A stretch of 64,000 bases of DNA from Vicinamibacterales bacterium. GTDB lineage: Bacteria > Acidobacteriota > Vicinamibacteria > Vicinamibacterales > JAMQPK01. This document shows positions 2,722 to 63,758 of the stretch, one piece after another; position 1 is the stretch's first letter, and every line of letters starts with the position of its first letter. The notes beneath the pieces are model-generated. The model had not been told where the DNA came from and made no database searches. It saw nothing but the letters and a program-made list of their open reading frames with translations. The stretch lies in contig CAWGSZ010000001.1 in NCBI GenBank assembly GCA_963825295.1, positions 293,298 through 357,297 on the forward strand, given 5' to 3'. Both the position numbers and the translations under genes were made by a program.

Positions 2722-2783
2722 CATGGCAGATGGCAAAGGGCCGATGGCAGAACATGCCATTTGCGATCTGCCACTTGCCATGA
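2722..2783. repeat. inverted heptamer array (GGCANNT x4 / GCCANNT x4) between convergent genes
   Basis: GGCAGAT GGCAAAG GGCCGAT GGCAGAA CAT GCCATTT GCGATCT GCCACTT GCCATGA. The arms are mutually complementary. It lies between the stop at 2704 (+) and the stop at 2794 (-). Confidence 0.85.
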
Positions 2784-2793
2784 CGGCGAACCC

Positions 2794-6983: not shown

Positions 6984-7055
6984 GAACAGAAGATCAGAAG
7001 ATCAGAAGGTCATTGGCCGAAAAGAGATCTGATCTCCTGAACTTCTGATCTTCTG
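6984..7055. repeat. inverted octamer-type array (GATCAGAA / TTCTGATC) in a divergent promoter region
   Basis: CAGAAGATCAGAAG (6987-7000) is the perfect reverse complement of CTTCTGATCTTCTG (7042-7055). The same 14-mer recurs at 51051-51064, with related copies at 60124-60160. Confidence 0.85.
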
Positions 7056-12693: not shown

Positions 12694-12702
12694 ACCAGAA
12701 CT

Positions 12703-12807
12703 GGGGAGTAGGGACTAGGGATTGGGGATTAGGAATTGGGGATTGGATCAGGGTCGCAGGGACGCCTGATCCTAATCCCTAGTCCCCAATCCCTAATCCC
12801 TGATTCG
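12703..12807. repeat. inverted heptamer array, 7 units per arm (GGGATTN / NAATCCC)
   Basis: Left arm GGGGAGT AGGGACT AGGGATT GGGGATT AGGAATT GGGGATT GGATCAG. A 14-nt loop. Right arm CTGATCC TAATCCC TAGTCCC CAATCCC TAATCCC TGATTCG. It starts 10 nt after the stop at 12693. Confidence 0.9.
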
Positions 12808-14225: not shown

Positions 14226-16325
14226 GTGCCGAGCGTTGCAATAGAGTCGGAGGAAGCCGTGGCCCTTGAAATCAGACGAGACATCTACGAGAAGCACGCG
14301 TCACTGTTTGGCGAGAAGACCGTCAGCGGGAAGAAGGTCAACGTCGAGGAACTCATCACGAAGCTGACGCGCGAGACCAGCGGCGAATTCCGATCGCTGC
14401 TCGGCGTGCGCCATGCGTTCCAGGACCAGGTCGGGCGCCACGAGCGCACCTACACCTTCCTGCCGCCCGACTCGAAGATCAGCGACGCCGACGGCCATAC
14501 CATGACTGTGCGCGACATCCGTCAAGGCATGCTCGACGCATTCTTCGGGCGCAAGACGCCTCAGGCCTGGCGGCTGAATCCGTCCGTGCCCATCCCGACA
14601 GACACGATGCGCCCGGGTCTCGAGGGCACCGGGCCGGCGATCGATCTCGGCATGGCGATGGGAGCGCTCAACACGGGCGCGGCGTCATGGATGTGGGATT
14701 GGGAAGATGCCGGCGGCGACTACAAAGACCAGTTGTATCAGGCGTGGGAGAACCTGCGCGATCTGCTCGCGCATAAGTGGGTGGGGAAGCCGTTCGTCCA
14801 TCCTTCCAAGAAGCAGGGCGGCAAGCCGCGCGAGTACACGATCGATCTTCCCCCCGACAAGTGGCCCACGATCTTCCACCGCGTGCCCGGGCTGCACCTG
14901 CAGAACCGTCAGATCGCGCTCGACGGCGAGCAGGTGCCGGCCATGATTCCGGCGCTCGTGATGCACGCGGTGAGCAACTACGACACGCAGAAGAAAAACG
15001 GATCCGGGATCTATTACTACGTTCCCAAGGTCGAAACGTGGCAGGAAGCCCGCCTGGTCGCGAAGCTGCTGAAAGGCGTCGAGGAAGGCCTGGGACTGGC
15101 GCGCGGCACGCTCAAGATCAAGATGCTGAACGAGCGCGCCGAATACGCGCTCCAGCAGGAAGCGATCATGTGGGTGCTGCGCGAGAACCTCATCGGACCG
15201 AACGTCGGCCGGTGGGACTATCTGAACAGCCGCGAGGAGATGTTCCGTCACGACCCGTCGATGGTGATTCCGGATCCCAACACCGTCACGATGACCGACC
15301 CCACGCTGAGCTATTACACGATGCGCAACGCGCTCCTCGCGTTGCTCGCCGGCGGCATGCCGATCGGCGGCATGGCGGCGCAGATGCAGAACCCGCAGGC
15401 GCCCGAGAACGATCCCAAGGCGCTTCGCGACATCTGGTTCGACAAGCTGCGGGAACGGCTGACCGGGCTGTTCAAGATCAACGGGCAGGTGCACGACACC
15501 TATCGCCAGTCCTGGGTGGCGACCATCACGCCGTCGTATGTCGAAGCCGGCCGCGAGTCGCTCGTGACCGACGTCAACGATCTGCAGGTGGTGGTCGACA
15601 AGCTGACGCCCGACGAGCGGAAGCGGCTCGAAGATCTGAAACTGCTGAAGGACGGCCGCATTTCACCGCTCGAGCTCTCGGAACCGGATCTGGCACCGGA
15701 GAAGCTGTTCTCGGAGGACGCGCGCAAGAAGCTGCTGTCGCGGCCGCAGGGGCCGACGACCGAAGACGGTCTCAGGTATGCGATGTACATGGCCACCGAG
15801 TTCATGTATCAGCAGCTCCTCGGCAACAACGCCGCCGCGATCTACGACCCGCGCACAGGGCTCCGGTTCATGAACGACCTCGCCACGTATGAGATCTTCT
15901 GGCACTTCCTCTATCTGACGGTGTTCCACGGCGCGGAGCTGACCGCCGACGGGAAGTACGCCAAAAAAGGCGACAAGGTGACGCCCGAGCTCTTCATCAA
16001 GCTGCTCGACGAACGGCGCGACACCGTGAAGGAGCTGTTCAAGAAGCTGGGGACCGAGTACGGCAAGACCAACGCGGAGCTCGTGCTGACGGTGTTGAAG
16101 AGACAGGTTGTGGAAACCCGGCCGGATGGGCGGCTCGTGCCTCAACCGCGCTGGATCAAGTACGGCTCGCGCGTGCTGCTGGCGATTATCGAGGAGTCGG
16201 ACGCCGATCGGTCGGCGATCCTCGATGCGATCTTCAGTGGCAGCCGCGGCGACCTCTCGGGCAAGCCGCTGCGCGCCTACGATTTCGTGTACGACGTCCG
16301 CGAGGCGGCCCAGACGGTCGCCTAG
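14226..16325 (+). CDS. malate synthase family protein (atypical 699 aa)
   Basis: GIYYYVPKVETWQEARL..GTLKIKMLNERAEYA..NVGRWDYLNS parallels the malate synthase YFYLPKME / GRWDYIFS motifs. GTG start. Confidence 0.65.
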   Translation: MPSVAIESEEAVALEIRRDIYEKHASLFGEKTVSGKKVNVEELITKLTRETSGEFRSLLGVRHAFQDQVGRHERTYTFLPPDSKISDADGHTMTVRDIRQGMLDAFFGRKTPQAWRLNPSVPIPTDTMRPGLEGTGPAIDLGMAMGALNTGAASWMWDWEDAGGDYKDQLYQAWENLRDLLAHKWVGKPFVHPSKKQGGKPREYTIDLPPDKWPTIFHRVPGLHLQNRQIALDGEQVPAMIPALVMHAVSNYDTQKKNGSGIYYYVPKVETWQEARLVAKLLKGVEEGLGLARGTLKIKMLNERAEYALQQEAIMWVLRENLIGPNVGRWDYLNSREEMFRHDPSMVIPDPNTVTMTDPTLSYYTMRNALLALLAGGMPIGGMAAQMQNPQAPENDPKALRDIWFDKLRERLTGLFKINGQVHDTYRQSWVATITPSYVEAGRESLVTDVNDLQVVVDKLTPDERKRLEDLKLLKDGRISPLELSEPDLAPEKLFSEDARKKLLSRPQGPTTEDGLRYAMYMATEFMYQQLLGNNAAAIYDPRTGLRFMNDLATYEIFWHFLYLTVFHGAELTADGKYAKKGDKVTPELFIKLLDERRDTVKELFKKLGTEYGKTNAELVLTVLKRQVVETRPDGRLVPQPRWIKYGSRVLLAIIEESDADRSAILDAIFSGSRGDLSGKPLRAYDFVYDVREAAQTVA

Positions 16326-16332
16326 AGAAACG

Positions 16333-16413
16333 GTTCCGGGATAAATGGGGTCGGGTGCAATTTTCACTCTGGCCCTGGTCGAAAATTGCACCCGACCCCA
16401 TTTATCCCGGAAC
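16333..16413. repeat. perfect 33-bp inverted repeat with a 15-nt loop
   Basis: GTTCCGGGATAAATGGGGTCGGGTGCAATTTTC (16333-16365) and its exact reverse complement at 16381-16413. It lies between the malate synthase stop and the ECF sigma start. Confidence 0.9.
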
Positions 16414-16429
16414 TGTTTTCACACGCCGA

Positions 16430-16948
16430 ATGTCCAAAGACAGACCGCCCAAGGCGGAAGACGTGGCGCCGATCGTCTACGACGAGTTGCGCCGCGTCGC
16501 CGCCGCCTACATGCGCCGCGAGCGGCCGGGACAAACCATTCAGGCGACGGCGCTCGTCCACGAGGCCTACCTGCGTCTCGCCCAGGCGGGGACGCCCTGG
16601 CACGATCAGAAACACTTCGTCGGCATCGCCGCCCGTTCCATGAGGCAGATCCTCGTGGAGCGGGCACGCGCGCGCGGGGCACAGAAGCGATGGGGCGGGA
16701 TGAATCGCGTGTCGATCACCGATTCGCTCCAACTGGCGTCCGATCCCGAGACGATGCTGCCGGCGCTCGACGAGGCCATCACCCGGCTCGAACAGGTCGA
16801 CGCCGAGCAGGCGAAGATCGTCGAGCTCCGGTACTTCGCGGGTATGAGCGTCGAGGAAGCCGCGGACGTGATGGGTATTTCGCCGGCCACCTTGAAGCGG
16901 CGATGGGCCCTGGCGCGCGCGTGGCTCTTCCGGGAGCTGTCGCAATGA
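16430..16948 (+). CDS. ECF-type RNA polymerase sigma factor (kinase-associated type)
   Basis: VYDELRRVAAAYMRRERPGQTIQATALVHEAYLRL and a C-terminal HTH (AGMSVEEAADVMGISPATLKRRW). The stop overlaps an ATG (ATGA) of the downstream kinase frame. Confidence 0.8.
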   Translation: MSKDRPPKAEDVAPIVYDELRRVAAAYMRRERPGQTIQATALVHEAYLRLAQAGTPWHDQKHFVGIAARSMRQILVERARARGAQKRWGGMNRVSITDSLQLASDPETMLPALDEAITRLEQVDAEQAKIVELRYFAGMSVEEAADVMGISPATLKRRWALARAWLFRELSQ

Positions 16949-17031
16949 TTCGGCGATGCGTGTCCTTCACCACAGAGGAAGGACTTCCGCAGAAGCCTCT
17001 GTGGGAAACCCAACCGGGCTGCGCAAGCACG

Positions 17032-18502
17032 ATGACTCCAGAACAGCGACGACGCGCGCGTGATTTGTTCGAGGCGGCGGTCGAGCAGGAGCCCGCGGAC
17101 CTGTATCGCTGGCTCGACGAGGCGGCCGCCGATGACTCGCTGGTGCGTGCGGAGGTTCGGTCGCTGCTCGACCATCATTCGCGCGCGGGGTCGTTTCTCG
17201 CGCAGCCCGTGGCCGAAGCCGTTCCTCAGCTCCTCGAGGAGGATCGCGCGATCGCGCCGGGTACGGAGCTCGGTCCCTACACGGTCGTCGGCGAAATCGG
17301 GCGGGGCGGCATGGGACGCGTGTATCTGGCGTCGGACGGCCGGCTCGGCCGCACGGATTGCGCTGAAGGCGCTGCCGCCCGAGCTGACGCGCGATGCCTC
17401 GCATCGCGATCGGCTGCGCCGGGAAGCGCGCGCGGCCGCGCTCCTCACCCATCCGGGGATCTGCACGGTGTTTGCGCTCGAGGAGCTCGAGGGCGAGCTG
17501 TACATCGCCACCGAGTTCGTCGAAGGGCACACGATGCGCGAAGAGATCGGCACCACGCGACCGTCGCTCGAGACGATCCTGGCCACGGCGCGCGATCTCG
17601 CCTCGGCACTGGCGGGCGCCCACGGCAAAGGCGTGACGCATCGCGACCTCAAGCCGGAAAACGTGATGCGCACGGCGGACGGCCGCATCAAGATCCTGGA
17701 TTTCGGCCTCGCGCGCGTCGAGACCGTGCCCGGCGGCATTGCGGCGACGCTGACCGCGTCGCTCCCGGGCGCCATCGCCGGCACTCCCGCATACATGTCT
17801 CCCGAACAGATCGAAGGGCGGACGGCCGGCCCCGGCGCCGACGTCTTTGCGTTCGGGGTGCTGATGTACGAGTGGATCTCGGGCCGTCATCCATTCCTGG
17901 CCGGCTCGCCGCTGGCCACGCTGGCACGCGTGCTCGACAGCAACCCGGACCCGCTGACGACGGTGGCAACCGTCCCGGCGTGGCTGTCGAATGTCATCGA
18001 CCGGTGTCTGCGGAAGTCGGTCACCGATCGGTACGCGTCTGCGTCCGAGCTGCTGTACGCGCTGGACCATCCCACGATCGTCGAGCCGCCGACGGTGCGC
18101 AGCAGCACGTGGTGGCGCACGCATCAGGTCGTGGCGATCGGTCTTTACATCGTTGCGATGGCCCACGCATGGCAGATCAAGGAGTGGTTGCGCAACCCGA
18201 CATCGCTCTGGGTGTTCGTCGTGATGGGCATTGCCGCCTCGGTGGGTGGCATCGTTCGCGGCCATCTCGTCTTTACCGACGCGATGAACCGGTCGCACCT
18301 GCCAGGCGAACTTTCCAGGACCAACCGGGTGCGGCTCTTCACCGATGGGCTGCTGGCCACGCTGTTGAGCGTCGATGCGCTGCTGCTGGCATGGCAGTGG
18401 CCGCTGACCGCGGTGCTGACGCTCGCGCTCGCCGCCGGCATCATGCTGGCCGCGGTGCTGATGGAACCGGCCACGACTACTGCGTTACTGGATCCCCAAT
18501 AG
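17032..18502 (+). pseudogene. Ser/Thr protein kinase with a C-terminal multi-TM region, frame broken near 17356
   Basis: The N-terminal part sits in the frame of ORF 16345..18510 (..GEIGRGGMGRVYLASDGRLGRT). The rest sits in ORF 17060..18502 (IALKALP..HRDLKPENV..DFGLAR). One extra G at about 17356 separates them. An alternative start is 16945. Confidence 0.75.
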
Positions 18503-19076
18503 TGCGTTAGGTGCGACGCTTGCGCGCGGGCCCGGGCCAGCGGTTCCACTCGGGATCCGGCCGCTCCTTTACGGAGTTCCGGAAGCGACTCGTCGCGACG
18601 AACGCCCGCTTTTCTAGATTCAGGGCGGAAGCGATCTCTTCGTCCTCACGTAGCCATTGTCGAGCGCCTCGCCCAGTTCGTCCTCAACCTCATTGAGCGA
18701 TGTTAGAGAGGTTGCAAGAAAGTTCGCAATGTCGCGGTGAGTTCTTCGGCCAAATCCCTCCGCAATCATCCTCCGCGCTGACGCCGCTGCATCCCTGAGC
18801 TGGTCGCGCAGGTCCCGGTCTTGACGGAATACGGGCTTTGAGCTGATTCGAAACACCTCCCTTTGAAGTGCACGAGCGAGCTTCCAGCACGTCAATTCCG
18901 AGAAATGTCGCACGCCCATGCGCGACCGAACTGCACGCGCGATGCCGCCCTCCTGTGGGAATTTTCAGGGAAGTCGTGGCCCTTGCGATATGGTGTGGCA
19001 CTTCTTGCTCAACCCGTTGGCATTTTCCACACGATCGCCCGCACCCAACGCACCCGTCGCACCCAACGCACCTATA
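18501..19076. mobile_element. hypothesised IVS-like cassette: inverted GGTGCG nonamer arms enclosing a four-helix-bundle gene
   Basis: Left arm AGTGCGTTAGGTGCGACG (18501-18518) matches the reverse complement of 19055-19072 (GGTGCGTTGGGTGCGACG) at 16 of 18 positions. The right arm has 4 nonamers (19041-19076). The interior gene has lower GC3. Confidence 0.4.
18620..18919 (-). CDS. four-helix-bundle protein (23S rRNA intervening-sequence protein / Avd-like family)
   Basis: Family pattern ..CWKLARAL..LRDQLRDAAASARRMIAEGFGRRTHRDIANFLATSLTSLNEVEDEL.. Confidence 0.75.
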   Translation of the reverse strand: MGVRHFSELTCWKLARALQREVFRISSKPVFRQDRDLRDQLRDAAASARRMIAEGFGRRTHRDIANFLATSLTSLNEVEDELGEALDNGYVRTKRSLPP

Positions 19077-19078
19077 GA

Positions 19079-19843
19079 ATGTGTCGCGTGTCCTTTCCCG
19101 TCATCTTTCTCGCTGCGTTCGTGGCCGGCGCCATCAACTCCGTTGCCGGTGGCGGCACGCTGCTCACGTTTCCCTCGCTCATCTGGGTCGGCTTGCCCTC
19201 GACGATTGCGAACGCGACCAGCACAGTGGCGATCTGGCCCGGCTCGCTGGGCGGGATGTGGGGATACCGCCGCGACCTGGAAGGCGTGCCGAAATCGAGT
19301 TACATGCTGATCGGTCCGAGCCTCGTGGGCGGCATAGTCGGCGCCGTGCTCATGGTGCTGACGCCGACCGACGTCTTCGATCGGCTGATTCCGCTGCTGA
19401 TCGTGTTCGCGACCGTGCTCTTCATGCTGCAGGAGCCCGTGCAGCGGCTCATCAAGACGACGGGGAAGACGCACGCCGGATCGACGAACTGGCTCCTCGG
19501 CGCGCTCGTCTTTCAGTTTTTCGTCTCGGTGTATGGCGGCTACTTCGGCGCGGGGATCGGCATCCTCATGCTCGCCGCGTTCGGCATCATGGGATTCACC
19601 GACATCCATCAGATGAACGGCCTCAAGACATTTCTCGCGCTGTGTATCAACGGCGTCGCCGCCGGGTACTTCATCTGGAACGGGATGGTCTCGTGGCCTC
19701 ATACGCTGGTGATGGCGGTGGGCGCCATTGCCGGTGGAGTGTGGGGAGCGGGCATGGCCCGCCGCATCGGCCCGAAAGGCGTGCGCAGAATTGTCATCGC
19801 CGTCGGGTTCACGATGGCGTTTTCGCTTCTGTTCCGCCTGTAA
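19079..19843 (+). CDS. TauE/SafE (TSUP, DUF81) family anion exporter
   Basis: Multi-TM protein with AGGGTLLTFP and GGYFGAGIGILML motifs. ATG at 19079 lies directly after the nonamer array. Confidence 0.8.
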   Translation: MCRVSFPVIFLAAFVAGAINSVAGGGTLLTFPSLIWVGLPSTIANATSTVAIWPGSLGGMWGYRRDLEGVPKSSYMLIGPSLVGGIVGAVLMVLTPTDVFDRLIPLLIVFATVLFMLQEPVQRLIKTTGKTHAGSTNWLLGALVFQFFVSVYGGYFGAGIGILMLAAFGIMGFTDIHQMNGLKTFLALCINGVAAGYFIWNGMVSWPHTLVMAVGAIAGGVWGAGMARRIGPKGVRRIVIAVGFTMAFSLLFRL

Positions 19844-19972
19844 GTCAGCCGATCGCAGGACTTCTTCCGTCGTGACGCGAGAGCCGCGGCGAGGTTTAAC
19901 CCGATCGTTACAGGTCGGCCACCGCGGCGTTAGGGGCATTGCCCATAGTGGTGGTGGGAGTGAGCCGCCGCC

Positions 19973-20743
19973 GTGACCTTCACCGTCATCGTTTGCGCCT
20001 ACAACGAAGAGCAACTGCTGCCTGGCTGTCTGCAGTCGCTGCTTCAACAGTCGCCCCGGCCGCACGAAATCATCGTCATCAACAATGCCAGCACGGATGG
20101 CACAGCCGCCGCCGCCTCGCATGCCGGGCATCACGGTGGTGGACGAGCCTCGAAAGGGCCTGGTCATCGCCCGCGAGACCGGACGCCGCGTGTCAACAGG
20201 CGACGTGCTCGTCTACGTTGATGCCGACTGCCGCGTGCCGCGCGACTGGCTGCGGTGCGTGGCGCGCGAGTTCGAAGGCCCCAACCCGCCCGTCGCCGTC
20301 ACGGGGCCGTATCGCTTCTACGACTGGGATCTCTTCGGACGCGTGCTGCTCCGGATGTACGACTACAGCCTTGCGCCGGCGACCCACGTGCTCGCGCAAT
20401 ACGTGTTCGGGCTCGGCGCCGTGCTGTACGGCGGGAACTTCGCCGTCACGCGCCAGGCGCTCGACGCCATCGGCGGATTCGACACGACGATCGAGTTCCA
20501 CGGCGAAGACACGAATCTCGCCCGCCGCGTGTCGAAAGCGGGGCGCGTCCGGCTGAAGCCAGGCTTGCTGGGTGTTACACCTCCGCGCGCCGCTACAAGT
20601 CGATGGGGCGCGCCAGGGTGTTCGGTCTCTACGCGAGGAACTTCTGCGCGGAAATCTTCTTTCATCGCCCGTCCGACACGACCCACGAGGACGTGCGCAG
20701 CTTAATCAATTATGCCTGGATACGAACCTTACCTGCTGTGTGA
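19973..20743 (+). pseudogene. family-2 glycosyltransferase, at least 2 frameshifts
   Basis: TFTVIVCAYNEE..IIVINNASTDGT (frame 1), then PGITVVDEPRKG..VYVDADC..GGNFAV.. (frame 2), then YTSARRYKSMGRARVF (frame 3). Shifts lie at about 20110 (GCC run) and about 20570. Confidence 0.7.
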
Positions 20744-21450
20744 CTTTCACGTGCATACCACGTGGAGCGATGGCCGTCTGACGCTGCGCGAAGTGGTCGA
20801 TCTCTACGGCCAGACGGAAAAGTTCGACGTGCTCGCGATTACCGATCACATCCTCTGCAAGAAGGATCTGCTCGGGCGCATCGGCCGCATCGCGACGCTC
20901 GGTAAGCGGCAGTTCTCGATTACACCCGAAAGCTTCGACGACTACATGGCCGACATCGAGAAGGAAGCGCCCGCGCGAAACGGCAGTACGGCATGCTCGT
21001 CGTGCCGGGCGCCGAGGTCACGCAGAACCACTCCGCGCCAAGCACAATTCGCACATCGTGGCGCTCGGCCTGAAGAAATTCATCAGCGCCGACCTGAAGG
21101 CCAAAGAGATTCTCGAGGAGATCCGGCGGCAGGACGCGGTCAGCATCGCGTGCCACCCCATCACCGGACGACGACCAGGATGGAAATCGGCACGTGCCAT
21201 CTGTGGGACCATCGCAAGGAGCTCGCCGCATCTGGTCGACGTGTGGGAGGCCGCCAATCGCGACGATCTGTTTTCCGTGACCAGCCTGAAGCACTATCCG
21301 TATGTCGCGAACAGCGATTTCCACAAGCCGAAGCACCTCTACTCGTGGAAAACGCTGGTGAGGTCCGCGAAAACCTGGCTCGCGGTCAAAGCCGCCCTCA
21401 AGGCAAACGTCGACATCGCCATCACGCTGTTCCGGAAAGAGCCCTGCTAG
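20712..21450 (+). pseudogene. PHP-domain phosphoesterase, multiple frameshifts
   Basis: CDFHVHTTWSDG..LAITDH (frame a), AKRQYGMLVVPGAEVTQNH (frame b), NSHIVALGLKKFISAD..VWEAANRDDLF..VANSDFHKPKHL (frame c). Shifts lie at about 20972 and about 21030, with possibly two more in 21150-21230. Confidence 0.65.
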
Positions 21451-40000: not shown

Positions 40001-41254
40001 ATGATCGTCCTCTCCGGCGCCGATCTCGTTCTACCAGGCGGTGTGCAATCGCGTGCCACGCTGGTCATTGATGGGGAACGGATAGCCGATGTGAGCAGCG
40101 CGACGGCCCCGCCGGCGTCTTCCACGCCGCTCGACGGACACATCATCGTGCCCGGGTTCATCGATGTGCACGTCCATGGCGTCGACGGTATTGACGCGCT
40201 CGATGGGTCCGATGCCACGGCCGCCATTGCCAGCCGGCTGCCGAAGTTTGGCGTCACGGCGTTCTGCCCGACCACGGTCGCATGCGGACCTGCCCGCCTG
40301 CGCGACGTGCTCGAGAGCGTGGCCAGACTGCGTGGCGCAATCGATGGTGCGGCTCGCGTGCTGCCCGCCCATCTGGAAAGCAACTTCATCAATCCCGACT
40401 ACAGAGGCGCGCAGCCGGTTGAGTGTCTGCGCGCACCTCTGGGTGCGTTGGGTGCGAGGGGTGCGTTGGGTGCGAGGGGTGCGTTAGGTGCGTCGGGTGC
40501 GACAGGTGCGATGGAGGATTTCGATGCCGCCGACATTGTTGCCGAGATCGATCGTGCCGGTAGCGCCGTCGGCATTGTAACGCTGGCGCCCGAGCTCGAC
40601 GGCGCGCTCGACCTCATCCGGCATCTCGTGTCGAAGGGACGGCGGGTTTCGCTCGGGCACTCGGGCGCTGACATGGAGCAGGGACGCGCCGCAATCGAGG
40701 CCGGTGCGACTCAGGCGACGCACCTCTTCAACAGGATGCCGCCGTTCGGCCATCGCCAGCCGGGGCTGGTGGGCGCGATCCTGTCGAGCGAACGTGTGGC
40801 CGCCGAAGTGATTTGCGATGGTGTGCACGTGCACCGCGAGGTCGTGCGCATGGCGGTCTCCACCAAGGGAACGGCCAGGATGATGGCGATCACCGACGGG
40901 GTCGCCGTCGCCGGCATGCCGGACGGCTCGACGGCACTGCTTGGTGGACGGCAGATTCGCGTCGACAAGTCCGCCGCGTATCTCGAAGACGGCACGCTCG
41001 CGGGAAGCGTGACCACGATGGACCGCGTATTCAGATTTCTCGTCCGCGACGTCGGGCTTTCACTCGTCGACGCGGCGCATCTGTGCTCCACCACGCCTGC
41101 CGCGGAACTGAACCTCACGGATCTCGGCGCCATCACCAAAGGTGCCATCGCCGATCTCGTCGTCCTCGATCGCAACTTTCATGTCAGGCAGACCTACGTC
41201 GCCGGCCGGCTGGTCTACGACGGCGAAAAAGGCTCCCGGAGCCTTTTTGAGTAA
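40001..41254 (+). CDS. nagA: N-acetylglucosamine-6-phosphate deacetylase with an in-frame repeat insertion
   Basis: ATG at 40001. GFIDVHVHG, HLESNFINP, LGHSGA, THLFNRMP, ITDG. It contains the 72-nt GGTGCG array. Confidence 0.85.
   Translation: MIVLSGADLVLPGGVQSRATLVIDGERIADVSSATAPPASSTPLDGHIIVPGFIDVHVHGVDGIDALDGSDATAAIASRLPKFGVTAFCPTTVACGPARLRDVLESVARLRGAIDGAARVLPAHLESNFINPDYRGAQPVECLRAPLGALGARGALGARGALGASGATGAMEDFDAADIVAEIDRAGSAVGIVTLAPELDGALDLIRHLVSKGRRVSLGHSGADMEQGRAAIEAGATQATHLFNRMPPFGHRQPGLVGAILSSERVAAEVICDGVHVHREVVRMAVSTKGTARMMAITDGVAVAGMPDGSTALLGGRQIRVDKSAAYLEDGTLAGSVTTMDRVFRFLVRDVGLSLVDAAHLCSTTPAAELNLTDLGAITKGAIADLVVLDRNFHVRQTYVAGRLVYDGEKGSRSLFE
40441..40512. repeat. 8 x 9-nt tandem array (GGGTGCGNN) in frame inside nagA
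   Basis: GGGTGCGTT GGGTGCGAG GGGTGCGTT GGGTGCGAG GGGTGCGTT AGGTGCGTC GGGTGCGAC AGGTGCGAT. It encodes GALGARGALGARGALGASGATGAM. Confidence 0.9.
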
Positions 41255-46112: not shown

Positions 46113-47851
46113 TGGTGGGCTTCGTACGTAGGCCGGGTCCTGCAGGACCCGGCGATCGGCGGGTCGACAGTGCAAGATCCGCTGCATGGCGGGTCTACAA
46201 AGCAAGACCCGCCCTACTCGTGGTGGCTCTCGCAGCGGTGGCGTCCGGCATCCTCTACGGCCAGGCGCGCAGCGCACCCGACTGGACGACGAGCGGGTTC
46301 GATGCGCAGCGATCGTCGTGGGTGCGCGCGGACCCGTACATTTCGATTCCGAATCTGACGAAGTTCCAGTTCATCTGGAAACTGAAGGTCGACAACGAGT
46401 CGCGGTTCGGGAACTCGCTGACCGCTCCCGTCGCGCTCGGCAACCTGATGACGTTTCGCGGATTCAAGTCGCTCGTCTTCGTCGGCGGCAGTTCCAACAA
46501 CGTCTACGCCATCGACTACGACTTCGGCACCATTTTCTGGCGGACCCATCACAACTACGCGGCCGGCGCCCGCGAGTTTTCCGGATCGCCCGCGTGTCCG
46601 GGCGGCATGACGATGCCGCTGACGCGCGCGACGCCGCTGGTTCCGACGGCGCAGCTGGCTTTCTTCGGGTTCGCGCGCCCGCCTCGTCCGGCCAAGGGGG
46701 ACATCGGCGAGCCTGGAAAAGGCGCACCTCAACTGGCCGAGATCGCGGCCCGCCTGGCGGCTCGCGGCAACAGCGGACGCGGAGCTGATACGCCGGCGCC
46801 CGCTCCACCGGCGCGCGGCGCCGCGCCTAACGCACCTCTCGCACCCAACGCATCCACCTCCGCGCCTACTTCGCAGACCGCTACGGCGGACAAGCCCGTC
46901 GCACCCAGTTCGCGGGTCGTGCGTGCAACCAACGCCGTTTTCAGCGTGGCCGCCGACGGCTTGTTGCGGGGACTCATTCCCGATACGGGCGATCTCGCGC
47001 TGGCACCGGCACGGTTTCTTCCGGCGAACGCGACAGCGACCGGGCTCATCTGGACCGAGGGCTTTGTTTATGCCGCCACGACAAATACATGCGGCGGCAC
47101 GTCGGAAGCCGTGTGGGCCATGGATGTTGCGTCGGACGCCAGGCCGGTGGTTTCGTGGGATACCGGTGGCGCGCCAGTGGCGGGAATCGCCGTCGGTCCC
47201 GACGGTACTGTGTACGCCGCCACCGGAAGCGGCACGTCTCAATACGCCAGCTCGATCGTGGCATTGGACGGCGCGACGCTGACCGTGCGCGACTGGGTCA
47301 CGCGCGAGTCCGGGTTTACGTCGGCGCCGGTCGTGTTCACCGAAGGGCAGAAGTCGTACGTGACGGCCACGTCGGACGGCCGGCTCCATGTCTTCGATGC
47401 CGCCTCGCTGGGCGGCGCCACTCACCGCGCGCCGCTGGCCATGACGGCCGATGCCGGGCTGCGCTTCGCCCCTGACGGTCTCGCGACGTGGCGCGACGAG
47501 TCGGGCACGCGCTGGATTCTTGCCGCCCTCGGCGATGCGATCGGCGGCTTCAAGGTCGTCGACAAGGGCGGCACACCCTCGATCGAGCGCGCGTGGACAT
47601 CGCGGACGATGGCATCTCCGCGCGCGCCGATCATCGTCAACGGCGTCGTGTTCGCGCTCGCCGGCGGCAACGCGAATGCGAACGCGACGCTCTACGCGCT
47701 CGATCCTTCGACAGGCAAGGATCTCTGGACCAGCGGAAGTACGATTACCGGGGTTGCCAGCGCCGGGCTGTCTGCCGGAACCGGCCAGGTGTACGTCGTG
47801 ACGTCGGACAACACGGTATGGTCGTTCGGCATTCCGCTCGCCATAAATTAG
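46109..47851 (+). CDS. PQQ-like beta-propeller repeat protein with a low-complexity insert
   Basis: ATG 46109 overlaps the upstream stop (ATGA). Blades such as NNVYAIDYDFGTIFW and ATLYALDPSTGKDLW. There is an Ala/Pro-rich insert including a CGCACC nonamer array. Confidence 0.7.
   Translation: MMVGFVRRPGPAGPGDRRVDSARSAAWRVYKARPALLVVALAAVASGILYGQARSAPDWTTSGFDAQRSSWVRADPYISIPNLTKFQFIWKLKVDNESRFGNSLTAPVALGNLMTFRGFKSLVFVGGSSNNVYAIDYDFGTIFWRTHHNYAAGAREFSGSPACPGGMTMPLTRATPLVPTAQLAFFGFARPPRPAKGDIGEPGKGAPQLAEIAARLAARGNSGRGADTPAPAPPARGAAPNAPLAPNASTSAPTSQTATADKPVAPSSRVVRATNAVFSVAADGLLRGLIPDTGDLALAPARFLPANATATGLIWTEGFVYAATTNTCGGTSEAVWAMDVASDARPVVSWDTGGAPVAGIAVGPDGTVYAATGSGTSQYASSIVALDGATLTVRDWVTRESGFTSAPVVFTEGQKSYVTATSDGRLHVFDAASLGGATHRAPLAMTADAGLRFAPDGLATWRDESGTRWILAALGDAIGGFKVVDKGGTPSIERAWTSRTMASPRAPIIVNGVVFALAGGNANANATLYALDPSTGKDLWTSGSTITGVASAGLSAGTGQVYVVTSDNTVWSFGIPLAIN
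46822..46857. repeat. 4 x 9-nt array (CGCACCNNN, complement orientation) in frame in a propeller gene
   Basis: CGCGCCTAA CGCACCTCT CGCACCCAA CGCATCCAC. It encodes APNAPLAPNAST. Confidence 0.75.
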
Positions 47852-47931
47852 GTGCGAGGGGTGCGAGGGGTGCGAGGGGTGCGTCAGGTGCGTCAGGTGC
47901 GAGGGGTGCGATGGGTGCGCTAGGTGCGGCC
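47851..47931. repeat. 9 x 9-nt tandem array (GGTGCGNNN) filling an intergenic gap
   Basis: GGTGCGAGG x3, GGTGCGTCA x2, GGTGCGAGG, GGTGCGATG, GGTGCGCTA, GGTGCGGCC. It starts at the last base of the TAG stop (47849-47851) and ends 3 nt before ATG 47935. Confidence 0.9.
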
Positions 47932-55148: not shown

Positions 55149-55532
55149 TCACAGCGCCGCCGCGAAGAACGCCAGGCAGGCCCAGCCGATGAGGAACCCC
55201 AGGCCGCCGATGGGCGTAATCGCCCCGAACATGCCGGTGCCCGTCAGCGCGAGCGCGTAGAGGCTTCCCGAGAAAATGAGCGTGCCGGCGATGAACGACC
55301 AGCCGGCGATCATGAGCAGCCGCAGCGGTCCGAAGTGCCCGATGGCCGCTGCGGTGATGAGCAGCGCGAAGACGTGATACATCTGGTACCGCACGCCGAT
55401 TTCGAAGACCGCCAGCATCTCTGGCGACAGCCGGTTACGCAATCCGTGCGCGCCGAACGCTCCGAACGCCACGCCGAGAAATCCAAGAATCGCCCCGATG
55501 AGTAGAAAACCCTTATGCATGTCTTTCGTCAT
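55149..55532 (-). CDS. DUF423 (YgdD/TMEM256-like) membrane protein
   Basis: GAFGAHGL.., VRYQMYHVFALL, SGSLYALALTG. Confidence 0.75.
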   Translation of the reverse strand: MTKDMHKGFLLIGAILGFLGVAFGAFGAHGLRNRLSPEMLAVFEIGVRYQMYHVFALLITAAAIGHFGPLRLLMIAGWSFIAGTLIFSGSLYALALTGTGMFGAITPIGGLGFLIGWACLAFFAAAL

Positions 55533-55620
55533 GGCAAATGGCACATGGCAAATAGCAAAAATTGGCATGGATGATGGCGTGTTCTGCCATGTGCCATTTG
55601 CCATCTGCCATCTGCCATGA
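55531..55620. repeat. inverted heptamer array (ATGGCAN x4 / GCCATNT x5)
   Basis: ATGGCAA ATGGCAC ATGGCAA ATAGCAA, a loop, then GCCATGT GCCATTT GCCATCT GCCATCT GCCATGA. It uses the same unit family as 2722-2783. Confidence 0.9.
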
Positions 55621-60110: not shown

Positions 60111-60178
60111 GAAAGATAAGAAACAGAAGATCACGAAGATCAGAAGCTTTTGATCTTCTGATCTCTCTGTTGTTTTTC
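60111..60178. terminator. hairpin-forming GATCAGAAG-type array followed by a T-run (possible bidirectional terminator)
   Basis: ..CAGAAGATCACGAAGATCAGAAG|CTTTTGATCTTCTGATCTCT.. then GTTGTTTTTCG. It lies between convergent stops at 60091 (+) and 60199 (-). Confidence 0.5.
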
Positions 60179-62276: not shown

Positions 62277-62834
62277 ATGAATCTCGTATTCTTCGGGCCC
62301 CCTGGCGCCGGCAAGGGCACGCAGGCCGACCGGTTTGCCGCCAACCATCGCATCCCGAAGATTTCCACCGGCGACATGCTTCGTCAGGCCGTGGCCGACG
62401 GCTCTCGCATCGGGACACTCGTGCGCGACACGCTGCAGTCCGGCGCGCTGGTGACCGACGAGCTCATCATTTCGCTGGTGGCCGAGCGGCTCGAACAGCC
62501 GGATACGGCCGGCGGGTTCGTGCTCGACGGGTTTCCGCGCACCATTCCCCAGGCGGCGGCGCTCGACGCGATGCTCGCCGAGCGGGGCGGCGTGAACGTC
62601 GTCGCGCTCGTGGTCCATGCCGACGAAGTCGTCCGGCGGCTCGCCGTGCGCGGGCGTGAGGACGACGGCGCGTGGGTGATCAAGGAAAGGCTCCGGGTGT
62701 ACTCCCGCGAAACCGAGCCCGTGCTCGAGTTCTATCGCCGGCGCGGCGCGGTAACGATCCTCGACGGCAACCGTCCGCTCGACGAAGTGACCGCTGCGAT
62801 TGAAGCAGCGGTTACGAGAGGGCTGAAGGCTTAG
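62277..62834 (+). CDS. adk: adenylate kinase (short-lid type)
   Basis: P-loop FFGPPGAGKGTQ, ISTGDMLR, GFVLDGFPRT. ATG at 62277. The stop codon lies inside the heptamer array. Confidence 0.85.
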   Translation: MNLVFFGPPGAGKGTQADRFAANHRIPKISTGDMLRQAVADGSRIGTLVRDTLQSGALVTDELIISLVAERLEQPDTAGGFVLDGFPRTIPQAAALDAMLAERGGVNVVALVVHADEVVRRLAVRGREDDGAWVIKERLRVYSRETEPVLEFYRRRGAVTILDGNRPLDEVTAAIEAAVTRGLKA

Positions 62835-63427
62835 GGCTCAGGGCTTAGGGCTCAGAGCTTAGGGTTTTGCACCTCGAGATGGCGACGCCTGCGCCGTCTT
62901 GATCGCCGCGACGATCATGGCCCGTAGCTCGCCGGCCTCCTTCAGTTCCCAATCGACTTCCTCTGCTTTGACCTTGCCGAGCTTTACCGCGACGCGCAGC
63001 CAGTAGCGGCTCTCGCGCGATTCCTTTCGAGAGATCGCCATCTTTGCGATGAAGTCGGGCTTGGTCTGACCATCCTGCGCTTCCTCTGCGTTGGCCCCGA
63101 CCGAAGCACCGCACCGCATCAACTCCGACGCGATATGACGCGCAGCAGGTCCGCGATCCCACAGTCTTTCTGATAGTTGCATCACTCGACAACCGAACTC
63201 GAACGCCCGCGTGCAGATAGTCGACTCGCTCATAGCGTTCGTGTGTCTTCAAATACGCCGCCATTTCTTGACTGCATAGATTCCGGAGGTTTTTCTTCCG
63301 GTTGGCAGTCTTTGCCACGTCAAGTCGACACCGACGTTGGAGAATGTTTGAAGCTGGATCACGATTAACCCTCAACCCTTAAGCCCTCAGCCCTCAGCCC
63401 TCAGCCCTTAGCCCTTAGCCCTTTCAG
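62821..63427. mobile_element. hypothesised IVS-like cassette: inverted GGCTNAG heptamer arms enclosing a four-helix-bundle gene
   Basis: Left arm 62821-62869 has 7 units of GGCTNAG. Right arm 63365-63427 has 9 units of CTNAGCC (the reverse complement). A single antisense ORF lies between them. The right arm abuts a truncated gene. Confidence 0.4.
62859..63233 (-). CDS. four-helix-bundle protein (23S rRNA intervening-sequence protein / Avd-like family)
   Basis: ..FEFGCRVMQLSERL..ELMRCGASVGANAEEAQDGQTKPDFIAKMAISRKESRESRYWLRV.. The TAA stop lies in the last units of the left array. Confidence 0.75.
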   Translation of the reverse strand: MSESTICTRAFEFGCRVMQLSERLWDRGPAARHIASELMRCGASVGANAEEAQDGQTKPDFIAKMAISRKESRESRYWLRVAVKLGKVKAEEVDWELKEAGELRAMIVAAIKTAQASPSRGAKP

Positions 63428-63428
63428 A

Positions 63429-63677
63429 GGAGAACCGCATACCGGCAGTCAGGTGTGCACGTATGCATCGGCGCAGTGGGCTGCATCGATTCGCGACTAC
63501 ATGGCGCTCGAGACCGTCACCGGTGAAGGCGGGTGGATGGATCAGGTGCTGACGCTCGATGGTCCCTACATCAAGGATGGCTTCATACAAGTGACGAGCA
63601 AGCCCGGACTGGGCATCGTTCTCAATCCGGACGTCGTCCGCGCCCATCTCGTGCAGGGGGAGAGTTGGTGGGGCTGA
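63429..63677 (+). pseudogene. 3' fragment of an enolase-superfamily (mandelate racemase/muconate lactonizing) gene
   Basis: The open frame starts right at the array edge: ..EPHTGSQVCTYASAQWAASIRDYMALETV..GPYIKDGFIQVTSKPGLGIVLNPDVV.. This matches only the C-terminal ~80 aa of such enzymes. No 5' part is present upstream. Confidence 0.55.
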
Positions 63678-63679
63678 AT

Positions 63680-63751
63680 CAATTGCGGATTGTTGATTGA
63701 CGATTGGCGATTGTATTGGCAATTGCCAATCGTCAATCGCCAATCGAAAAT
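63680..63751. repeat. inverted heptamer array (GATTGNC / GNCAATC) around an ATTGGCAATTGCCAAT palindrome
   Basis: CAATTGC GGATTGT TGATTGA CGATTGG CGATTGT, the centre, then TGCCAAT CGTCAAT CGCCAAT CGAAAAT. It lies between convergent stops at 63677 (+) and 63759 (-). Confidence 0.9.
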
Positions 63752-63758
63752 CCGAAAG

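Follow-up and report, generated by a model that had tools for sequence, protein, structure and literature searches.

The window analysed here is a 64,000-nucleotide (64-kb) stretch of contig CAWGSZ010000001.1 from a Vicinamibacterales bacterium, and coordinates refer to it unless another locus is named. In the spacer between a Ser/Thr kinase gene and a TauE gene, it carries a small cassette consisting of one antisense gene of the PF05635 family bracketed by inverted arrays of 9-nt units. The neighbours identified by Pfam are a malate synthase, an extracytoplasmic function (ECF) sigma factor, the kinase, TauE and a GT2 glycosyltransferase. PF05635 is a four-helix-bundle family that includes Xanthomonas XCC0516, the open reading frames (ORFs) of 23S rRNA intervening sequences (IVSs) and Avd, a protein of diversity-generating retroelements (DGRs). 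IVSs with a PF05635 ORF (termed S23p) and terminal inverted repeats are known from Leptospira, Coxiella, Brucella and Xanthomonas. The IVS ORF has been known for about 30 years and structures have been solved; to our knowledge, its function is not known.

The cassette between the kinase and TauE genes

The kinase gene (17060..18502, plus strand; Pkinase match at 5.7e-34) ends in a TAG codon at 18500..18502, whose final bases are shared with the start of the left arm. This arm (18501..18518) is the 18-mer AGTGCGTTAGGTGCGACG, composed of two eroded GGTGCGNNN units (AGTGCGTTA GGTGCGACG). The right arm (19040..19075) consists of four CGCACCNNN units (CAA, CGT, CAA and TAT) beginning at 19040, 19049, 19058 and 19067, and is recognized by Tandem Repeats Finder (TRF) as 19040-19072 with a period of 9 and 3.7 copies. 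A preliminary description of this DNA had placed the left arm on the kinase TAG, counted four units on the right and reported a match between the arms at 16 of 18 positions, and recomputation returns the same values: the reverse complement of 19055-19072, GGTGCGTTGGGTGCGACG, is identical to the left arm at 16/18. In a repeat search, the pairing lengthens to 23 nt at 87% (18502-18524 with 19049-19071). The two mismatches correspond to G.U on the sense strand of the cassette gene, and in folding predictions for the whole cassette, the arm stem closes the RNA on both strands, in the minimum free energy structure as well as the centroid. In these predicted folds, the family ORF lies in the loop of a terminal-inverted-repeat stem, as in an IVS.

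The left-arm 18-mer occurs seven times in the window with three or fewer mismatches, against 0.17 expected, an excess that marks the GGTGCG nonamers as a genuine family of repeats in this DNA. The other matches fall in GGTGCG arrays (40442-40495 and 47887) and in a coding look-alike at 46819. The latter belongs to a run of CGCACC-like nonamers at 46823-46905 inside a PQQ-repeat protein gene, where they are translated (PNAPLAPNAS...); this run may represent an array that became part of the coding sequence. Only 19055-19072 matches the 18-mer on the opposite strand with two or fewer mismatches. Because GGTGCG arrays are dense in the window, the arm match taken alone is only modestly improbable, with an estimated chance of about 0.05 for an inverted partner within 600 nt. 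Whether the match was expected by chance, one of the conditions under which the preliminary description would have failed, is decided by homology rather than by this figure, as described below.

Between the arms lies a minus-strand ORF of 99 aa (18620..18919), which matches PF05635 (E 4.7e-17, 62.6 bits, cut-off 33.8) and TIGR02436 (E 2.7e-15, 56.5 bits, cut-off 24). Its family membership had been proposed earlier and stands; its extent does not, since the frame is shortened by a 1-nt deletion between 18645 and 18646, where the window reads CTTCGTCC-TCACG and the closest relative (L053) reads CTTCGTCCGTCACG. In alignments, the missing base is present in L053 and in all orthologues. The window ORF is accordingly not an intact full-length frame and covers the profile only to position 83-88. 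Putting the base back yields a reading frame of 137 aa (18507..18919) and raises coverage of TIGR02436 from 83 to 93 of 109 positions. The restored ORF stops at TAA 18507-18509, within the left arm and 4 nt from the kinase stop, and its protein tail, ...PDPEWNRWPGPARKRRT, is kept in orthologues, with the final R-T encoded by the array. In all intact copies, the 3' array likewise supplies the end of the ORF: its first units are translated (…RRTQRTQRT), and a variable triplet provides the TAA or TAG stop. The deletion is either a true inactivating mutation or an assembly error, the latter because L053 has a different indel and many of the relatives are long-read metagenome-assembled genomes.

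Upstream of the gene, 120 nt of non-coding sequence (18920..19039, minus strand) contain motifs common to the subfamily (AAAATGCCAAC, TTCCCTGAAAATTC and GGCATCGCGCGTGCA). The promoter of the gene presumably lies in this region, in which no sigma-70 consensus was found. The composition of the gene is foreign: third-position GC content (GC3), whose low value had been noticed from the window alone, is 0.63 in the ORF (in a range of 0.63-0.69), as opposed to 0.81-0.87 in the genes around it. Between cassette copies, dN is 0.07-0.25, dS is saturated and omega is about 0.02-0.10; these values argue that the gene is maintained by strong purifying selection, with omega at about 0.05. Searches with PADLOC and PHROGs profiles gave no match for the cassette protein, Rfam gave none on the cassette, and no rRNA was found in 16000-21000.

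The structure was modelled as an AlphaFold2 (AF2) monomer of an intact homologue (P0001) that is 92% identical to the window protein. The model has a pLDDT of 85, with four helices and a disordered basic tail, and in Foldseek, it superimposes on XCC0516 (2GSC) with a TM-score of 0.87-0.89 and a root-mean-square deviation (rmsd) of 1.5-1.9. In a phmmer search of the PDB, 2GSC was found at 2.2e-6. The predicted protein would accordingly adopt a four-helix-bundle fold like that of XCC0516. The model also matches BT_0352 (2RLD) and Avd (4DWL, TM-score 0.88; DGR ribonucleoprotein 8UB7). Avd is likewise a small basic protein, and PF05635 has been reported to be the commonest Pfam family near DGR reverse transcriptases (PMC10053308), so that the gene might be read as the avd accessory gene of a DGR. 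However, identity to Avd in the Foldseek alignments is only 8-11%, and no reverse transcriptase is present among the neighbours identified by Pfam, the rest of the window not having been scanned for one. There is also no template/variable repeat pair and no long direct repeat pair in 18300-19300, and the cassette occurs alone in many contexts. A DGR role is thus highly unlikely.

On the far side of the cassette, the last right-arm unit ends at 19075, 3 nt upstream of ATG 19079. This ATG is where the preliminary description had placed it; its assignment as the TauE start does not hold up as well. The codon is in frame in the window and out of frame in two relatives (L002 and L003), and because their indel shifts it, GTG 19088 is more likely to be the TauE start. 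A TAGAAT box resembling a -10 element (19075-19080) lies 7-8 nt 5' of this GTG. Box and probable start together occupy 19075..19090 (plus strand), and the box is conserved at the orthologous sites of relatives (L001-L039) with or without an inserted element. This conservation suggests that TauE has its own promoter and possibly a leaderless mRNA.

The same layout at orthologous and unrelated sites

A TauE scan of the genome collection returned 47 loci. The preliminary description had proposed to check synteny of this junction, and the order ECF sigma-kinase-TauE is maintained in about 22 Vicinamibacterales species. At eight junctions (the window counted, the nearly identical L053 not), a PF05635 gene lies between GGTGCR-NNN and YGCACC-NNN arrays. 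In L004, L005, L007 and L009, the gene is on the minus strand, with GGTGCR-NNN units on the left, YGCACC-NNN units on the right and 6-19 units per side; in L012, L014 and L030, the gene is on the plus strand and the arrays are placed as in the minus-strand loci. Other spacers hold CGCACC units alone (L001 and L021), a different palindromic element of about 250 nt in opposite orientations (L002 and L003), or short hairpins of 8-nt or 7-nt tandem units (L006, L011, L015 and L013), and six are almost empty (L008, L016, L017, L020, L039 and L044). The palindromic element (L002 5690-5990; L003 5740-5990) is GC-rich and lacks a PF05635 gene, and the L002 copy has no Rfam match. These states are interleaved among sister species on the TauE tree. 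The comparison of spacers shows a junction that turns over quickly, holding the cassette in either orientation, a lone array, other hairpins or nothing.

Two close relatives clarify the history of the window copy. L053, which is about 95-97% identical to the window, has about nine left units where the window has two, as well as a longer right arm. Together with the orthologous arrays of 6-19 units, these longer arms show that the window arms are worn-down remnants of genuine arrays. With two and four units and one frameshift, the window copy is probably decaying. L001 (host pS 0.07-0.10 to the window) retains the right arm nearly base for base, and the gene is gone.

The presence of both orientations at one junction raises the possibility of a recombinational inversion switch, in which the core flips between the arrays so that a promoter or the gene faces TauE or the kinase and alters expression of the neighbour. 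L005 (minus) and L014 (plus) are sisters on the TauE tree, with L012 and L030 also in the plus orientation; arm polarity is unchanged in both orientations, and arms of 50-160 nt of near-repeats would be sufficient for RecA. However, no invertase gene is present, orientation differs between species and not within one population, and the eight annotated plasmid copies described below are all co-oriented with their neighbour genes. Moreover, the layout also occurs inside 23S rRNA, where a switch would be senseless. A dedicated switch is therefore improbable.

The window contains a second cassette of the same architecture with a different unit (62819-63423), as had been noted. Its left arm consists of 6.6 copies of AGGGCTN heptamers (62819..62864) and includes the stop codon of an adenylate kinase gene (62832-62834), and its right arm comprises 8.3 copies of NAGCCCT heptamers (63365..63423) according to TRF. 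Between them, a full-length PF05635 gene of 124 aa (62859..63233, minus strand) matches PF05635 at 2.8e-16 (60.1 bits) and TIGR02436 at 1.1e-20 (73.8 bits). Neither BLASTP nor tblastn, run with the two proteins against each other and against the window, gave a cross-match, so the two are linked through profiles only. Directly after this cassette, a 74-aa ORF (63453-63677) matches only positions 161-218 of the 219 of MR_MLE_C, the C-terminal domain of the enolase superfamily; it may be the remnant of a gene whose truncation is connected with the second cassette.

Beyond the two window cassettes, the layout recurs in unrelated surroundings. Hidden Markov models (HMMs) of the subfamily and of both subfamilies combined, run on six-frame ORFs of the window plus 53 loci, revealed no further PF05635 genes, and all PF05635 ORFs detected by the two-subfamily HMM in these ~620 kb are flanked by arrays. 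The distance between arrays is 484-609 nt in 14 cassettes from both subfamilies. In unrelated gene contexts, the GGTGCG nonamers are retained in L051 and L052 and the AGGGCT heptamers in L048 and L049/L050. Across unrelated insertion sites, therefore, the repeat unit is seen to follow the protein subfamily, which argues that the arrays belong to the cassette.

A broader sample came from a metagenome scan, for which only the close subfamily was used, since a mixed alignment had no conserved stretch; the sample is therefore biased toward relatives of the first cassette. Of the 80 loci found (34-87% identity), nearly all have an upstream array and an inverted downstream array. Their units are 7, 8 or 9 nt long and specific to the subfamily, and they include GGTGCGNNN, GGTGCGAG, GGTCCGAA, GAGTTTGTA, GAGTGTATA, AGTGCGA, AGGAGTG, GCGTTGA and others. 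Among non-redundant loci with both flanks, 27/39 passed a strict inverted-array test that 1.4% of random positions passed, an enrichment of about 50-fold; the failures were mostly near-misses or one-sided arrays. The preliminary description had asked for such a test of whether PF05635 genes are systematically flanked by inverted arrays, and this census, like the HMM survey, supports its claim that the layout is conserved rather than any one repeat, the units being of quite different sequence.

Cultured Cyanobacteriota, Bacteroidota, Gemmatimonadota and Pseudomonadota contributed ten finished plasmid records, which were judged by eye; most of them display the same layout. The cassette occupies the cas6/cas4 spacer in Anabaena sp. 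90 pANA02 (L134), the cas10/cmr3 spacer in Picosynechococcus PCC 7003 (L137) and the spacer between an Fe-S assembly gene and sufB in Riemerella, and it is also present in Geminocystis, Nostoc punctiforme, Calothrix and Gemmatirosa. Two of the ten, Nostoc PCC 7120 pCC7120gamma and Pseudanabaena, showed no clean inverted pair. These records also include the large-subunit (LSU) rRNA copy of Azospirillum, a canonical 23S rRNA IVS, which has the layout too, with inverted units of about 7 nt (GGACGGA/GGACAGA). The PF05635 genes of L134, L137 and L142 (Pseudanabaena galeata pPg_01) lie between cas6/cas4 or cas10/cmr3 and are co-oriented with the cas genes. A large clustering study lists '23S rRNA IVP' among CRISPR-associated proteins (PMC10910872), and the location of these cassettes probably explains that listing.

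The arms have a consistent polarity. In 30/34 cassette-type pairs, the 5' arm has more G than C, and the four exceptions look spurious; the same G-rich-first bias is weaker in hairpins that lack the ORF (22 to 8). Since this polarity is identical read from either strand, it is an intrinsic property of the element.

Simple juxtaposition of a small gene with ordinary intergenic simple-sequence repeats or terminators was also considered. In its favour, the window is rich in arrays and hairpins, the arms of the window copy are short, and intergenic heptamer arrays, convergent pairs included, occur in Xanthomonas and Nostoc without a link to a gene (PMC4692102). Such a coincidence would nevertheless have to recur, each time with the unit of the subfamily, at eight orthologous junctions and also in unrelated gene contexts, and to produce the enrichment over random positions, a constant core length and, in every intact copy, an ORF stop inside the array. 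These data contradict it, and it is very improbable.

Some loci depart from the simple form. L059/L060, L066 and L123 are compound, with a second array in direct orientation after the gene and an inverted array about 480 nt beyond; L066 has very long arrays on both sides (20 to 36 copies). These may be tandem or nested cassettes. Contigs carrying close homologues of either gene are mostly just 0.5-3 kb long, as would be expected if short-read assemblies break where the flanking arrays lie.

Arrays and hairpins without the gene

GGTGCG-family arrays also occur alone. In the window, a lone GGTGCGNNN array of eight units (40441..40514, plus strand) adjoins the ATG of the next gene and has neither an ORF nor an inverted partner, and another of about nine units (47850..47928, plus strand) takes up a whole spacer, starting at the TAG of a PQQ-repeat gene and ending within 6 nt of the following ATG. 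Both occupy co-directional spacers from the stop codon up to, or nearly up to, the following start codon, with the sense strand G-rich. ORF-less arrays of this family are found in relatives as well (L005 at 3175, L051 at 1837 and L021).

In their build, head-to-tail 7-9-nt units in intergenic DNA as found by TRF, the cassette arrays resemble known heptamer simple sequence repeats (SSRs), including the short tandemly repeated repetitive (STRR) sequences of cyanobacteria, GGGAATC in Xanthomonas, GGGGAYT in Nostoc and TAACTGA in Beggiatoaceae, which are intergenic and often lie at stop or start codons; the arrays described here overlap stop codons. Convergent inverted pairs are among the intergenic heptamer arrays of Xanthomonas (PMC4692102), and the function of such arrays has been described as unknown (10.1101/309039). 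Unlike the cassette arrays, which bracket one gene family with units of 9 or 7 nt, the arrays in the reports searched are not tied to a gene.

Gene-free copies are what would be expected of a system comparable to repetitive extragenic palindromic (REP) sequences and the REP-associated tyrosine transposases (RAYTs), in which the PF05635 protein would bind its own repeat unit (as DNA or RNA) in trans and maintain or propagate the arrays, with ORF-less arrays and hairpins as non-autonomous products. Features shared with REP/REPIN-RAYT systems are a small gene between inverted cognate repeats, repeat and protein families that co-vary, and intergenic copies lacking the ORF. Unit type and protein subfamily co-vary over wide divergence, ORF-less GGTGCG-family arrays are present both in the window (40441 and 47850) and in relatives, and the arrays persist despite saturated synonymous sites, so that something maintains them. 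Additionally, the tail of the protein is basic and disordered, and its fold family includes Avd, part of the DGR reverse-transcriptase ribonucleoprotein (8UB7). However, co-variation is equally expected if arrays and gene move together, no AGGGCT arrays other than the cassette arms exist in the window, and L001 demonstrates that deletion can leave a single arm behind. The abundant ORF-less hairpins of the window use CAGAAGAT, ATGGCAR and GGGGATT, for which no cognate PF05635 gene was seen. Moreover, the protein has no nuclease or recombinase domain; it matches only PF05635 and not the HUH/Y1 (IS200/IS605-type) transposases that characterize RAYTs, and its repeats are tandem units of 7-9 nt rather than the single 20-35-nt palindromes of REP. 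On balance, we regard action of the protein on its arrays in trans as possible and rather doubtful.

The cassette does not qualify as an insertion sequence (IS) or a miniature inverted-repeat transposable element (MITE) with terminal inverted repeats: a transposase is absent, the arms are built of tandem units instead of unique terminal sequence, and comparison of filled with empty junctions revealed no target-site duplication. Other long-spaced inverted array pairs (L027, L006, L043 and L034) were rejected as cassettes because their loops are ordinary genes, coding sequence or nested palindromes. The palindromes are nested in L034 (4177-4446), where GCATAGCG arrays enclose an inner GGTTCGA pair, and in L043 (6780-7153), where CGGGCTG arrays enclose an inner CGCGTT pair.

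Six ORF-less intergenic hairpins in the window (2723-2790, 6987-7055, 12702-12801, 55531-55618, 60113-60169 and 63688-63752) are built of tandem 7- or 8-nt units (ATGGCAR, CAGAAGAT, GGGGATT and GATTGNC) with loops of 5-24 nt. The same build is seen across Acidobacteriota loci and on one Myxococcaceae and one Gemmataceae contig. In the spacer between the malate synthase and ECF sigma genes, a long near-perfect hairpin (16326-16420) matches several Rfam miRNA-precursor models with E down to 5e-7, under their gathering scores; these matches are to be read only as 'long hairpin'.

Relation to rRNA intervening sequences

Taken together, the unit described here is a core of about 0.5 kb with a PF05635 gene, bracketed by inverted short-unit arrays, which are GGTGCGNNN arrays in this case; in the window subfamily, the core also includes its own 120-nt 5' region. 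The observations of the preliminary description are confirmed, and its interpretation is supported. We read the window copy as an eroded IVS-type cassette outside rRNA, whose arms would form a stem in transcripts that cross it and be processed by RNase III, and we assign this reading as a whole a probability of about 0.6. Confidence is high for the cassette anatomy and the family assignment alone. For processing by RNase III, which is extrapolated by analogy, we would put the odds at slightly less than even.

The closest known counterpart is the IVS of Coxiella, in which RNase III cuts a terminal stem of 28 bp whose loop contains a PF05635 ORF, with copy-variable tandem heptamers beside the ATG (PMC4990558). 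This cleavage, together with whole-cassette folds closed by the arm stem, is the basis for reading the window element as an IVS-type insert. The two kinds of element share the protein family in the loop, terminal inverted repeats that would form a stem-loop, and a size of about 0.4-0.75 kb; the copy-variable heptamers of Coxiella and the inverted arrays of the Azospirillum rRNA copy add to the likeness. In contrast to IVSs, which occupy helix 25 or 45 of 23S rRNA, the window cassette lies in a protein-coding spacer. Its gene is antisense to both neighbours and has its own 120-nt 5' region, and its arms are arrays of 9-nt units.

In the mechanism proposed for such a cassette, the arms would pair in any transcript crossing it from either side, giving a long, imperfect stem whose loop holds the gene. 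The stem would be an RNase III substrate, as in 23S rRNA IVSs, and the insert would be excised or insulated from the host transcript, so that insertions would be tolerated in tight spacers, in operons and in rRNA. The arrays themselves would lengthen and shorten by slippage, and long inverted arrays would permit inversion and exchange of the core via homologous recombination. The G-rich-first polarity may avoid exposing a C-rich, Rho-attracting stretch while the loop is transcribed; this suggestion fits because the bias is stronger in long-loop cassettes than in short hairpins and because lone arrays are G-rich on the sense strand.

Several observations weigh against this reading. The window arms are only 18-23 nt long and the copy is eroded, with two and four units and a frameshift, which is possibly an assembly artefact given that the near-identical L053 has another indel. 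In relatives, the variable 3 nt of each unit are often unpaired, so that the stem would consist of 6-bp helices broken by internal loops. The fold of the arms is more stable on the sense strand in 11/14 cassettes, a weak asymmetry among non-independent cases. A scan of 18300-19300 found no sigma-70 promoter and no intrinsic terminator, and no sign of mobility was seen, whether a transposase, a recombinase, a target-site duplication or anything else. That RNase III would also cleave such elements outside rRNA is extrapolated from the rRNA elements. Judging from lone direct arrays and from the many ORF-less hairpins of other units, arrays do not need the gene to exist, and perhaps not to spread either, and they are not exclusive to PF05635. 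Finally, synonymous divergence of the gene exceeds that of host genes in 10/10 pairs; because weaker codon bias can explain this excess, vertical descent with losses and horizontal replacement are not separable.

The literature searched yielded no statement that PF05635 genes generally sit between inverted tandem arrays, or that such cassettes exist outside rRNA, which does not prove that none exists elsewhere. The results indicate that rRNA is just one of the places occupied by a much broader cassette, the IVS being its form there, with an invariant order of G-rich array, gene and inverted C-rich array. This cassette settles in tight spacers and operons, such as those separating cas genes, an Fe-S cluster operon and the kinase-TauE junction of the window. 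Its position between cas genes in three sampled plasmids helps to explain why the family scores as 'CRISPR-associated' in large screens, and its arrays may explain the very short contigs on which these genes are found. The array-gene-array layout also offers an annotation rule by which cassettes and their remnants can be recognized. A more far-reaching proposal is that PF05635 proteins are specific partners of short-unit arrays and that all belong to one widespread class of element. In its strongest form, the arrays would be built by templated 3'-end extension on either side of a break or insertion site, in a telomere-like manner or by Avd plus a polymerase. Such extension would explain why the G-rich strand runs 5' to 3' toward the centre on both sides, why the arms are inexact complements at the variable positions and why there are ORF-less hairpins of like build. 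We consider this proposal a long shot; if it were true, a large part of the intergenic 7-9-nt repeats and tandem-unit hairpins that bacteria carry in unexplained excess would be due to the partnership.

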